Shown here: one piece after another, positions 5,342 through 46,169 of the stretch
Layout: each line of letters begins with the position of its first letter
Position numbering within the stretch: the first letter of the stretch is position 1
Assembly (NCBI GenBank): GCA_964016885.1
Contig: OZ024743.1
Span: 155,310,001 to 155,374,000 of the forward strand
Source: Eledone cirrhosa
Taxonomy: Eukaryota
Length of the DNA: 64,000 nt
Reading direction: 5' to 3'
Made by a program: the position numbers and the translations under genes
Notes under the pieces: model-generated
Seen by the model: the letters and a program-made list of their open reading frames with translations, nothing else
Told to the model about the DNA's origin: nothing
Databases searched by the model: none

Positions 5342-5748
5342 ATTGTGGTTTGGCAGTATCGATAGAGGGTCTGGCGCCATGCTTTGCAGCAAAGAGTTAC
5401 GGGCCTTTTATGGACTGAGTTCAAATCCTATTGAGTTTAACTTTGCCTTTCATCCTTACGGGGTCGATAAAATAAAGCACCAGTAATACACTGCGATAAT
5501 TGCTGGCCTTGTGCCAAATGTAGAAACAATTATTATTATTATTATTGTGCCGGTGGTTGGCAGTATCGGTAGAGAGTCGGACGCCATGCTTTGACGCGTA
5601 GAGTTACGGTCCTTGCCATTCTGAGTTCAAATCCTGCCGAGGTTAACTTTGCCTTTCTTCTTTACGGGGTCGATACAATAAAGTACCAGTAATACACTGG
5701 GATAATTGCTGGCATTGTGCCTAAAGTAGAAACAATTATTTTTATTAT
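5342..5748 (+). mobile_element. Two tandem tRNA-derived Nin-domain SINE copies (5342-5547, 5548-5748)
   Basis: A-box TGGCAGTATCG, B-box GAGTTCAAATCC, core tttgcctttcatccttacggggtcgataaaataaag, tail ggccttgtgccaaa.gtagaaaca(att)n. Confidence 0.9.
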
Positions 5749-6155
5749 CCCGGTTCGAGATAAGCTCTACAGGCACAGAAGTGTCGTCAGCCGGAATTGT
5801 CCGGGATGCGCACAGAGCGACGAAACCGTTGTGCACGCACTGGTTCAGTGTCCGAGCATTGTTGACTTGTGGAGCTATGTCGAACATTTGCTGTCACGTG
5901 TTTGGACGGATCCGGTTATCGACTGAGTCCATGGCCGTGGTCTTTTGTGTGCTTTTCACCACGAGAGACCATCGGAAGTTTCCCTCTATTGGGGAATTTT
6001 TGTTGTTTGAATTTTTTTGATATTTCTATCTTCTTGTTATAACCTTTTTTACACAGCATAAACCCACTTCGTATCTTCCTGTACCGTTATGTGCCGTCTG
6101 TACAGTTTTTCTTCATGTTAGCCCTTGTGACCAATAAATAGACCATTATTATTAT
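5749..6155 (+). mobile_element. Tx1/L1-like LINE 3' fragment with internal deletion
   Basis: VRDKLYRH..CPGCAQSDETVVHALVQC (CCHC) and 3' UTR ending gcccttgtgaccaataaa..(att)n. Confidence 0.85.
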
Positions 6156-6460
6156 GATTGGTAGTATCGGTAGAGAGTCGGACACCATGCTTTGGAGCAT
6201 AGAGTTACAGACCTTTACGGTCTGAGTTCAAATCCCGCCGAGGTTAACTTTGACTGTCATCCTTACGGGGGTCGATAAAATAAAGTACCCGTAATTAACT
6301 GGGAAAAGAGTTACGGGCCTTTTATGGACTGAGTTGAAATCCTATCGAGGTTAACTTTGCCTTTCATCCTTACGGGGTCGATAAAATAAAGCACCAGTAA
6401 TACACTGGGATAATTGTTGGCCTTGTGCCAAATTTAGAAACAATTATTATTATTATTATT
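6156..6460 (+). mobile_element. Two partial SINE copies (6156-6303, 6306-6460)
   Basis: Same B-box and Nin core as 5342-5748; the second copy ends in the tail and (att)n. Confidence 0.88.
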
Positions 6461-9400
6461 GGTCTGATTGGACGTCTTTATGTTCGCTGTCGTAAGTCTC
6501 TTTATTTACCTGTTATAATTATTTGTTGTAAAGTTTGTGTTGTTGTGTAAAGGATATAAACCCTTGGACTTTTGCCTGTGAAGGGGAAAATATAATATTT
6601 GGGCCAAAAGTTCCAAATATTTGAACATTTTTCTTTTTTAAATTATCAAAAAAACAAACAAACCATGGCTGCTGTCGTGTGACAACGGTGTAACAGTTGA
6701 GAGGAGGGTTACAGACATTGATAAAACAAACACCGAGAATTGATACAACAAACACCGATAATACAATAGCGAGAATGACAACAACACTGAGAACACTAAT
6801 ATTAAAAACATTGCCACACCAACTACAACAGTGATAACAGCAACAACACCAACAACATCGTTTGTAGCAGTAGCAACAGCAACAGCACCAACAACAAAAC
6901 CAGTAGCAGCAGTAGCGGCTGCAATAATGGGAGCGCTGAAAAAGGGGCCACAACTTTCGCAGGAGTGGCCTGAAATATAGAATCAGTGCTAGTCACGGAG
7001 GAGCAGGTGGCAGCCGCCAGGGCCATGGTGACAGTAGATGACAATAAAGTTTCCCTGAAACCTCCACACGACTTTTAGAAGGATCAGCAGCTACTGGCGG
7101 TGGCTTACCGCATCGTAAGAAAACTGTCACATCGAGTTGAGAGATCCACGGAAGCTCAAATGCAAAAGGCCTTGGGGTGTGTCTGGACGCGCAAAGCCCA
7201 TATCACCCGCGGCAAAGATAAGCCACAGTAGAAGTACTTTTCGACCCCCCAACCCCAAGAGGCAAATTTTCACACTTTGGAAACACTAAAGAGTGAGAAA
7301 ATTGTCTCAGTGCCCTCCTACTGCGGGCAGAAAACTTGTGAGGGTCAAAGCGAACCAGGTCACGCCCGACGTGCCCATACCTTGGCTGGTTGCGTTTGTC
7401 GTTGTTGGAATCGAAGACAGGACCACCATACTGCAAATACAGAGAATGGGAATAGAGAACTCGTCAGGTATAGGCATGCAAATGCTAATACAAACTGGCC
7501 AGGTGTGTATCGACGCCATCCCAGATATCATATCCCTCGAGGAAGGACTCGAACTCCCTATAAACGTGGGAGGATGCCGCCCAAAGTGCTATTTCCGTGG
7601 GCAAAAGAGGCACCTCAGGAACCTTTGCCCGCAGGAGCAACCAAACAGAGGGAACCCCTGCTTCCAACGCTTCATACGTTGTTACCAAGAGCATGGCAGG
7701 CAATAGAGGCAGAAGACTCTTCTACGGTAAGTAGGAGAGCAATGCCCGTGGCACCCATACCAAGGCCACGGACGACTAAAACAGCGGCAGCAGTGGTGGC
7801 AACACTAGTAGCTACACTTGCAGTAGCAGCACCTACAACAAAATCGCCGGAAAGTTTTATACTACCACCACCAACAGCCGTGGAGCACATACCCATCCCA
7901 GACGCCACGGAATCCGCTCTTTAGTGTTAGTGGGTGACTGGAACGGTATCTTAGATGCACGCTGGGATTATGTGGGGCTAGTAAATAAGTGAGGAGGATG
8001 TAAAAGTATCACCAACCTGCTCAGATATTTTCAACTGTCTGACAGATACGACTGCAAATGTGGACCAGGGCAAAGCGCATCGGGTCATCCATATCGTATT
8101 TATATAGGGCATCTTTTTAGGGAAACAGATTAGGCTAGTGGAGGTTGTTCACAAATTAAAGTAGTCGACTACACGGACCATACATTTGTGATTGGTGAAG
8201 TTGACCTATATAGACTCCATAGGGAAGGGCCCGGTTGCTGGAAGCTGAACGCGTCGTTCCCGGAGCGTAAAGCTTATAGAGATCGGATTAGCGAATTGGT
8301 TAAGCGGGCGTTGACGGGTGCGTCACAACGGGAACTTCACAAATCACAAATGTATGACTGCACGAGATGTAAATACCCAGGTTTGGCTGGTCTACCCTAT
8401 GAGCTTTATGTGTATATGCCACACTTGTTCAGCAACCTCTTGGCACATGTCTACTGCCACTGACAGCAAGACAGGAGCAGTCTCAGTTTTGTGAGTCGGT
8501 CACCGGTGGCGCTGCTGACAAAAGACCCGAACAAGGGGGACATTATACACAACTTCAGGCCCATAATTCTGCTAAACGCAGATTTTAAGATTTTGGCCAA
8601 GGTGTTAACAAAGAGAGTGCCACTTGTCGTCGGTGATCTGGTGGGAGAGGCCCAGACATGTGCCATTCCAGACAGATCCATCCATGACAATCTCCATCTC
8701 ATGGGATACATCATAGAGAGGGGGTTAAGGTACCAGGCACAGGTTGGGCCCTGATCAATTTGGGTCAATCTAAAGCATTTGATAGGGTCGACCATCGGTA
8801 CCTGGCTGCGGTCCTCGAGGCCGCCTTCTTCAGGTCCGCTTTTAGGGGCTGGATCGCTGCGATGAACAGCGACATCTGCTCGATTGTGAGGGTGAATGGT
8901 CACCTGTCACATCCCTTCAACATCAATCGCTCGGTCAGCCAGGGTTGCACCATCTCGACCTCTTGTACCTATTGGCCCTCGAGCCGTTACTGAACAAATT
9001 GGAGACGAAGAGGAGGGTCCCACGCGAACTTGAATGCGGGAGATCCGTGTCAGCTTAATCCGACGACGTCCCCGTAGTGGTGTTGAGCACCAAACACGTC
9101 CAGATGGTCTCAAGAAATATGAAGCGGTGACAGGAAAAGAAAGATAAACCAAGAAAAGTCGGTGGGCTTGCAACTTGGCACCTGGAGAGGTAGGTCCTTG
9201 CCTTCCGACAGCGTCGTGGGGCGCTGGACGGAAGGACCGGTTGAATTATTCGGGGTCTGGTTCGGTACGGAACACCAGATGGAGAAACACTGGAGCGAGG
9301 TGACGAGCATGGTGGCCTCTCTCAACCCAGAAATGGAGGAGGCTGTCTCTGAAAGGTCCGACGGAGGTCGCGAATGCGCACATCGCGTCCGTCATCTGCT

Positions 9401-44718: not shown

Positions 44719-44994
44719 AAATGGTTATTGATACGGTCTTTATATATATATTATATATCTTACGTTTGCTTCAGGTTAAATCTATCAAACCAATGTGGTA
44801 TTTCTACCCTCGTAATTTTAGAGACAAATTACTGTGTTTATTTCTACATATATATAATGCGCAGTATTTATACTTTGAGCTTGTTAATTGCAGGGTATCA
44901 ATAAGAGTTAGTAACTCTGTATTTTATTTGTATATATATATATATATATATATATATATATATATATTTATATATATATGAATGTGTGTATGCA

Positions 44995-45845
44995 TGTAGA
45001 CCACGTTACGTACTCGGCATCTGTTGTTGAGGGGCATGTAGGTCTATCAGGGCAGTTAAACCTCCTGGTCGGCCCTCTACTGATTTGAAACTGCACTGAT
45101 ATATCTACGTTCCCTCTCAACAACAGATACCGAGACCGTAACGTGATCTACCAATGCAACGTGAGGACGGACCGCTTCAATAAAAGCTATATAGGATTAA
45201 CCGCCCAGACTTTAAAACCGGGCACTACCAACACCGATATACGTTAATAAACCTGGCCCGGCGACATGCCACTACACTTTCGTGCCACATCCGGGACTTC
45301 AAGATAATAACATCACATACCATCTTATTGGAGCTTACTCTACATGGCTAAACCCTACACGGGAGGACGCTGTCCGTATAACATATGCTCATATAGCAGC
45401 TGTCTTAATTCTGTTTTTTTTTATTATTTTAATTTTTTGTTTTTTTTTTATTTTATTTTATAATTTATCATTTTCAGATTCCGGTAAAATTATTTTTTCG
45501 CCTGCTTTCTAGCTAGCCTAATTCATTCACACTCCTTAGAATTTGCTGTACAGAACTTATTTTCAACGCTTGACCGGCTTCACCCACTCCCTCATTGTTC
45601 TACAGGCAAGTTCAACCACCCCCTCCCTACCCACCACCATGAACGATTTAACTGTATTTACAAGAAATTGTGACCAATCCTTTTGACAACTACAACCTGA
45701 AGAAATGGATGATTATCGCATGCCCATATATGGATTTATCCCTTGAAAAGTTCGGCTATTTACGACCACGCTAAAAACCTAATTTAGTCCAGGAATAGCC
45801 GATGTAACGGCTTGTGCTCAGCCGTCGGGGTACTGAATCTTTTCC
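44995..45845 (+). mobile_element. 5'-truncated PLE (GIY-YIG part and tail) preceded by an inverted duplicate of its own 5' end
   Basis: 45089 onward reads NCTD..PLNNR..NVIYQCNV..KSYIGLT..HATTLSCHI..AKPY; 44997-45057 is its reverse complement (NCPDRPTCPLNNRCRVRNVVY). Confidence 0.82.
45692..45815 (+). ncRNA. Degenerate hammerhead motif with long stems II and III
   Basis: CTGAAGA 45697-45703; aatggat/atccctt; GAAA 45745-45748; tcggctatt/aatagccga; GTA 45804-45806; stem I and the base of stem III are imperfect. Confidence 0.55.
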
Positions 45846-45985
45846 TATATATATATATATATATATATGTATGTATACGTACATACATATATGTGTACGG
45901 ACGCACAGTACTATGTATATATATATATACATACATGAACACATACATATATGTACGTCTGGGTTTACCGAACATTTATTATAAT

Positions 45986-46169
45986 TATTTCTACTTTTGG
46001 CACAAGGCCAGAAATTATCCCAGTACATTACTGGTACTTTATTTTATCGACCCCGTAAGGATGAAAGGAAAAGTTAACCTCGGCGGGATTTGAACTCAGA
46101 ATTGCAAGGGCCGTAACTCTATGCCTCAAAGCATGGCGTTCGACCCTCTACCAATACTGCCAATCCACC
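45986..46169 (-). mobile_element. SINE with 8-bp TSD inserted in a locally duplicated repeat
   Basis: attataat at 45978-45985 and 46170-46177; the uninterrupted paralogous site is at about 46687-46705. Confidence 0.93.

Follow-up and report, generated by a model that had tools for sequence, protein, structure and literature searches.

A candidate L1-group LINE-SINE pair with a common 3' end and a common ATTAT target in Eledone cirrhosa

Background

The eel element UnaL2 and the zebrafish elements ZfL2-1 and ZfL2-2, all long interspersed elements (LINEs), possess a 3' stem-loop, conserved in its loop and exchangeable in its stem, which is followed by short repeats (PMC4176376). A similar arrangement was detected in a stretch of 64,000 nucleotides (nt) of the Eledone cirrhosa genome (assembly GCA_964016885.1, contig OZ024743.1, positions 155,310,001 to 155,374,000 of the forward strand; hereafter the window), where a LINE assigned to the L1 group and an abundant short interspersed element (SINE) end in a small putative hairpin and insert in front of ATTAT. 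While UnaL2 and the ZfL2 elements belong to the L2 clade and their function was established by assay, the elements described here are of the L1 group, have a core stem of 3 bp, are followed by a repeat that is largely target DNA, and were characterised from sequence evidence.

Common LINE-SINE 3' ends within the L1 clade have been described for maize (LINE1-1_ZM/ZmSINE2-3) and for Chlamydomonas (L1-1_CR/SINEX-3_CR) (PMC3472496, PMC3747384), and the maize pair also possesses a hairpin with compensatory changes, in which the present one may resemble it. According to the parts of Ohshima's survey considered here, only three SINEs, from maize and Chlamydomonas, carry L1-clade tails, and stringent recognition is proposed to be ancestral and to have been relaxed in mammals (PMC3472496, PMC3747384). 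These pairs come from plants and algae, the algal pair ends in poly(A) and no microsatellite target is described for them in these parts of the survey, whereas the pair in E. cirrhosa is from an animal, lacks poly(A) and is target-specific.

A link between a SINE and a Tx1 element by a shared target, including tandem insertions parted by a duplication, has been described for the crocodilian SINEU and Tx1-Mar (PMC4494074). In the sections of that source considered, Kojima rests this link on the target alone; SINEU has a head derived from small nuclear RNA and a Mariner target, and no LINE with the SINEU-1 3' end is given, in contrast to the tRNA-like head, the shared tail and the microsatellite-type target of the SINE described here. 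L1-group elements specific for short repeats are likewise known from Kibi, Koshi and crocodilian Tx1 families, with the targets (TC)n, (TTC)n, (TTCC)n and (TTTC)n (PMC4494074), compared with (ATT)n and (TATC)n in sister branches of the present LINE. Since non-mammalian L1s are generally held to be structure-dependent (PMC4494074), stringency itself would be no surprise.

No published description of this LINE-SINE pair was found in the literature, and entries in Repbase, Dfam and SINEBase may include the SINE. The octopus SINEs OK, OR1 and OR2, reportedly described by Ohshima and Okada in 1994, may include it as well.

Comparison sets

The core comparison set of ~1.69 Mb comprised 60 arbitrary 10-kb stretches, the surroundings of the window, LINE-rich stretches and loci found by searches, and 30 further loci were added to it for the analysis of LINE duplications. 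Counts of exact patterns refer to the whole genome (3.0 Gb). Because the LINE loci were mostly chosen by patterns that fix the flank, LINE flank counts are biased, and the LINE age sample leans towards young copies. SINE duplications of at least 9 bp were regarded as informative, with mismatched flanks as controls.

SINE and LINE share an integration target

The strongest support for a partnership of SINE and LINE is their shared target, which the earlier note on this DNA had read as a shared (ATT)n tail. The repeat behind the elements is supplied mostly by the target and not by the element tail, as in the full-length SINE at 41434-41620 (minus strand), which is flanked by a 20-bp target duplication whose initial ATTAT directly adjoins the 3' end of the SINE (copies: 41640-41621 and 41433-41414). 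Informative duplications were found in 52 of 108 full-length SINEs (among 228 SINE ends), compared with 1, 2 and 2 in the mismatched-flank controls. With a median length of 16 bp, they begin directly at the end of the element in 47 of the 52 cases and with ATTAT in 43 of the 52, and a C or T stands before them in 42 of 51 cases. In LINEs of the ATT lineages, a duplication of 15-21 bp starting with ATTATT was present at 7 of 31 ends that had been selected for shortness of the repeat. SINE and ATT-lineage LINEs thus have an integration signature in common, namely a duplication of ~12-22 bp with the ATTAT start at the junction, the LINE cases being few and the LINE ATT runs longer. Throughout the genome at least 131,170 exact SINE-type ends precede ATTAT and 11,133 exact LINE-type ends precede ATTATT, while the reversed control pattern was found 0 times in either case; both counts far exceed chance.

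A sister branch of the LINE (~55-68% protein identity to the ATT LINEs) carries the same hairpin and inserts at a different repeat. Among the first 100 of the 2,710 LINE ends not followed by A, 83 were of the TATC type (counted by hand). TATCT follows 48 of 51 sister-branch ends, and 5 of the 6 duplications obtained from 35 examined ends begin with it. The branch is young (~3% divergence) and co-active. SINE ends before a non-A base number 8,644 genome-wide, and TATCT was found after 0 of the first 100; only 3 SINE ends in the whole genome precede a TATC-type repeat. As the SINE shares the ATTAT target and is nearly absent from TATC sites, it can be tied to the ATT branch without recourse to the hairpin. 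The endonuclease loop, on which the choice of target may depend in L1-type endonucleases, is NRIGSS in the majority of ATT-lineage copies; in four copies from TATC loci it is NRSG, NRNG or NRSE. The SINE may be kept out of TATC sites either by endonuclease specificity or by RNA-DNA pairing.

Common 3' end and overlapping ages

The last 25 nt of the SINE share 11-18 of 25 positions with those of the eight LINE lineages (p<=0.004, 3000 shuffles), and upstream of these ~25 nt the identity drops to 5-11 of 20. The ends of three other LINEs (two Dong/R4-like families, Dong1 and Dong2, and one RTE; CR1, L2, RTE-X and Penelope were left out of the comparison) match the SINE at 2-7 of 25 positions (p 0.28-0.97), so that the search for a better-matching LINE family suggested by the earlier note yielded none among these three. 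Based on these comparisons the 3' end of the SINE appears to be homologous to that of the LINE. All LINE lineages contain AATAAA directly after the stem and, further downstream, the GAAA which the earlier note had correctly described as common to both elements; the SINE lacks AATAAA, yet retains the loop, the spacing and GAAA. Both elements have precise 3' ends, and poly(A) was found at 0 of 228 SINE ends and, despite AATAAA, at 0 of 163 LINE ends. The body upstream of the 228 SINE-type tails was the SINE in 214 cases and, judged by eye, a short or diverged SINE piece in the other 14; a LINE body carried such a tail in 0 of the 228.

The median divergence from column majorities is 5.6% in the short form of the SINE (3.3% in the subset with GCCT, 6.2% in that with GCCA) and 11.7% in the long form, and amounts to 2.4, 2.8, 4.1, 7.3 and 9.9% in LINE lineages a, c, d, e and b, respectively, in a sample biased towards young copies. 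The overlap of these ranges (3.3-11.7% and 2.4-9.9%), an expectation of the earlier note that was borne out, suggests concurrent activity of the SINE and the ATT-lineage LINEs.

Classification and lineages of the LINE

Intact copies of the second open reading frame (ORF2) of the LINE are present elsewhere in the genome. One ORF2 of 1138 amino acids was predicted to contain the Pfam domains Exo_endo_phos, RVT_1 and zf-RVT; among its solved relatives human L1 ORF2p ranks best (E 1e-49), with R2 at 1e-19, and the nearest named relative of its reverse transcriptase (RT) region is a protein of Argonauta hians (73% identity). No Pfam match was obtained for ORF1. The predicted apurinic/apyrimidinic (APE) endonuclease, the RT, the C-terminal zinc finger and the proximity to L1 ORF2p place the LINE in the L1 group, in agreement with this part of the earlier assignment to the L1/Tx1 clade. 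A Tx1 or L1 clade label was absent from all LINE protein matches, cluster members and Atlas included. We infer the Tx1 clade from the target specificity and the octopus literature: a preference for target sequences, common in the Tx1 clade, is present in both the ATT and the TATC branch, and L1-Tx1 is the sole L1-group label in a table of active families of Octopus vulgaris.

A tree of 38 natural LINE copies contains the lineages a, b/c and d/e as well as a branch t1-t3. The commonest stems are GGCC/GGCC in a, AACC/GGTT in b and c (AATC as a variant in b) and AGCC/GGCC in d and e for the ATT lineages, and CGCC/GGCT or GGCA in t1, TGCC/GGCA in t2 and TGCC/GGCT in t3. A second candidate hairpin, CCCC-CTATT-GGGG (window 11638-11650), precedes the LINE 3' end by 110-180 nt; it is kept in all ATT lineages, t1 and t3, and was neither found in t2 nor seen in the SINE. 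Lineage c also forms a head-to-tail array (G000:C1:441098534-441134911) of seven ends with the same flank and a spacing of ~6.05 kb or double.

Structure and abundance of the SINE

The SINE is ~186-215 nt long and has target duplications, no open reading frame and motifs resembling the A and B boxes, as is characteristic of tRNA-derived SINEs. ARAGORN and Rfam gave no tRNA match (nor did Rfam report anything else of relevance), and the head is termed only tRNA-like. The central domain may resemble that of the Nin-DC/Deu superfamily. An older, long form with the stem TGGC/GCCT can be distinguished from an internally deleted, short form, in which the stem is TGGC/GCCA in 115 and TGGC/GCCT in 55 of 170 copies. 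Central-domain matches in 864 kb comprised 93 of the main family, of which 86 extend to the 3' end and 65 include the head; extrapolation from the 86 yields ~0.3 million copies genome-wide. The remaining 24 of 117 domain matches (e.g. at loci L058, L161, L008, L042 and L047) represent a second, more diverged SINE family with the central domain in common and a different 3' part. A comparison with contigs of four sequencing runs showed the SINE in runs of other organisms as well, and no readable hairpin variants were obtained from them.

The candidate 3' hairpin

According to the earlier note, different stems keep pairing around a shared CTTGT loop. This applies to the inner three base pairs, which are intact in 45 of 45 cells across 15 lineage representatives (an invariant C-G, then C-G, G-C or U-G, then G-C or A-U), with two independent double changes, one wobble and no fixed break across lineages. 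It does not extend to a stem of 4 bp: the outer pair is mismatched as a fixed feature in LINE lineages d/e, t1 and t3 and in the long SINE, as well as in 55 of 170 short SINE copies. The loop is shared by most lineages, the exceptions being t2 (CUGGU or CUAGU) and t3 (often CCUGU). The covariation score exceeds those of all 500 shuffles and of all slid registers, the rows being related. A rough simulation with branch weights of our own choice gave a probability of 0.006-0.015 for the lack of any broken inner pair and of 2-3e-4 if two double changes are included. In the LINE the hairpin is predicted in its sequence context with a median pair probability of mostly 0.6-0.98 (0.09 in lineage e, n=4), aided by a lower stem that shifts in register.

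The search for a LINE lineage whose stem equals that of the SINE found none among 36 double-changed LINE ends, of which 16 are paired, against 14.9 expected from letter counts. This points to neutral decay of these ends, and covariation within subfamilies is uninformative for the same reason. Pairing of the SINE 5' end with its 3' end was rejected as a cause of the stem change, since it is not the dominant fold.

Proposed mechanism and alternative explanations

On the basis of the sequence comparisons, the ORF2 protein of the ATT-branch LINE is probably the partner that copies the SINE. The mobilisation proposed in the earlier note thereby gains from the tail homology, the target, the duplication length, the exclusion from TATC sites, the overlapping ages and the lack of a match to the three other LINE 3' ends, while its hairpin recognition is only plausible. 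We lean, by a modest degree, towards a partnership combined with recognition of the hairpin (a 3-bp stem and the five-base CUUGU loop). ORF2 would nick the strand opposite Y|ATTAT and hold the RNA at the hairpin and the downstream GAAA block, and the read-through AUUAU of the RNA would pair with the freed DNA end. Reverse transcription would begin at a point 16-17 nt 3' of the loop that precedes any poly(A) or RNA polymerase III terminator, and would leave a precise 3' end without a tail. The SINE tail was likely acquired once from an ancestral member of the LINE group, and the ORF2 protein likely would have to trap the weak SINE hairpin or induce its refolding.

We tentatively put forward, at somewhat less than even chances, that the two elements represent an unreported animal LINE-SINE pair of the L1 group (Tx1) with stringent hairpin recognition, in which the selection of the RNA is split from the selection of the target. 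The same caution applies to the corresponding view of the sister branches, which may have kept the hairpin and switched their microsatellite target together with the endonuclease loop, with the SINE following the ATT branch only.

Several results weigh against hairpin recognition by this partner. With regard to the target, automatic calls of LINE duplications are few (4 of 72 unselected ends of the ATT lineages and 6 of 35 TATC ends), the LINEs stand in longer ATT runs than the SINEs (median 14 versus 6), and ATTATT with a non-A base after it follows only 469 LINE ends. The longer LINE runs might result from more extended AUU read-through from LINE source loci. With regard to the hairpin, the fourth pair holds in only 7 of 15 representatives and is broken in 8, the independent double changes are only two, and double-changed pairs are no more numerous than in the shuffles (226 of 500). 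The double change in the SINE can also be read as the loss of one C and one G with pairing kept, and its G-C at position 2 occurs in 0 of the 36 double-changed LINE ends of the form AATAAAGAAANC, a pattern outside which lineage a falls. Moreover, folding of 190 nt or of the whole element gives the SINE hairpin a median pair probability of 0.03-0.16; values of 0.64-0.77 are reached only under local folding with a span limit of 40 nt.

The weak SINE hairpin in whole-RNA folding is also what favours an explanation with the same partner and no reading of the hairpin, which we consider unlikely, though it is the most serious alternative. The LINE protein would then recognise a linear CUUGU...GAAA motif or rely mostly on AUUAU-target pairing, and the hairpin would serve the LINE only, for instance together with AAUAAA, and be a relic in the SINE. 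This would suit the position of AATAAA immediately 3' of the stem in all LINE lineages and the unpaired fourth position in the younger subset of the short SINE (3.3% versus 6.2% divergence). However, both partners of pair 2 have changed in the SINE with pairing kept, and the SINE has lost AATAAA but retained the loop, the spacing and GAAA.

It seems improbable, more so than the preceding explanation, that the tail was taken from the LINE group long ago and that an unsampled, ATTAT-cutting LINE now moves the SINE. The stem of the SINE is absent from every LINE lineage seen, its fourth position resembles that of the TATC lineages t2 and t3, the ATT-run lengths of LINE and SINE are unequal, and the sample covers ~1.7 Mb of 3 Gb. 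On the other hand, no LINE body with a SINE-type tail was met among the 228 ends, and the start and length of the duplications agree with the ATT lineages. Dong/R4-like LINEs share the nests of the SINE but carry (AAT)n on their own strand behind unrelated 3' ends, and RTE ends in (GAT)n with unrelated sequence; both were rejected as partners. Chance similarity or convergence of AT-rich ends gathering in the same microsatellite nests, which could appeal to the shortness of the shared stretch (~25 nt) and the low identity upstream of it, is very improbable and largely refuted by a similarity that is 3'-anchored and in register in all eight lineages and by the independently shared target.

Organisation of the window

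On the plus strand, two full-length SINEs of the short subfamily at 5342-5530 (stem TGGC-CTTGT-GCCA) and 5551-5736 (A-box-like motif TGGCAGTATCGG, B-box-like motif GAGTTCAAATCC, loop ATTGT, stem GCCT) are followed by a 5'-truncated LINE of d/e type with an internal deletion at 5750-6144 (hairpin AGCC-CTTGT-GACC at 6120-6132) and, at 6152-6444, by a fusion of a SINE without its 3' part and a SINE without its 5' part. A decayed LINE with internal deletions occupies 6899-10618 (AACA-CTTGC-GGTT at 10594-10606); its ORF2 groups with d/e and its 3' end is b-type, and it may be a recombinant or an older lineage. The stems at 6120 and 10594 are mismatched as noted earlier, the latter copy having in addition the loop CTTGC. 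A 5'-truncated LINE of lineage a lies at 10642-11757 (GGCC-CTTGT-GGCC at 11732-11744, with AATACATGAAATC after it), and 5'-truncated SINEs lie at 40348-40457 (TGGC-CTTGT-GCCA at 40433-40445) and 42850-42968.

The minus strand carries an internally deleted LINE of lineage c at 25265-30131 with its 5' end near 30131 (AACC-CTTGT-GGTT, loop 25285-25281), a SINE 3' fragment of ~45 nt within an ATT run (30168-30211), a 5'-truncated LINE of lineage d at 31012-34820 (AGCC-CTTGT-GGCC with an outer A.C mismatch, loop 31032-31028) and a b-type LINE fragment cut at the hairpin (34818-35416). The 3' ends of the LINEs of lineages a, c and d and of the SINE at 40348-40457 are present where they had previously been quoted. 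Further SINEs on the minus strand comprise a 5'-truncated copy (41723-41808), a tandem pair (42285-42665) and a full-length copy (45986-46169).

Two RT-encoding LINEs at 19074-25235 (plus strand), presumably Dong/R4-like, are unrelated to the hairpin LINE and end in (AAT)n. The two Dong/R4-like families occupy the same ATT/AAT runs in opposite orientation (window 18030-31014 and 58261-64000) and, together with the Tx1-type LINE and the SINE, build up mixed nests that span tens of kb. Since each insertion duplicates its target on both sides, the nesting order cannot be read. An ORF fragment at 2425-3087 resembles, by eye, Penelope-like fragments elsewhere in the sample and had no Pfam match. 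Inverted arms similar to those of miniature inverted-repeat transposable elements were detected at 46428-46931 (139 nt, 92% complementarity, 226 nt spacing).

Conclusions

The partnership of the LINE and the SINE, with its instructive switch of target, is well supported and of a known kind with few examples in its clade; recognition of the hairpin is likely but unproven. If true, a SINE partner for an animal L1-group LINE whose ORF2 exists in intact copies would allow a direct test of the proposal that stringent recognition is ancestral. Swaps of the endonuclease, the hairpin and the RNA repeat between the ATT and TATC sister branches could separate three possible sources of specificity. The pair would, if true, also point to the likely driver of a SINE which, at its estimated copy number, is among the most abundant of the genome.

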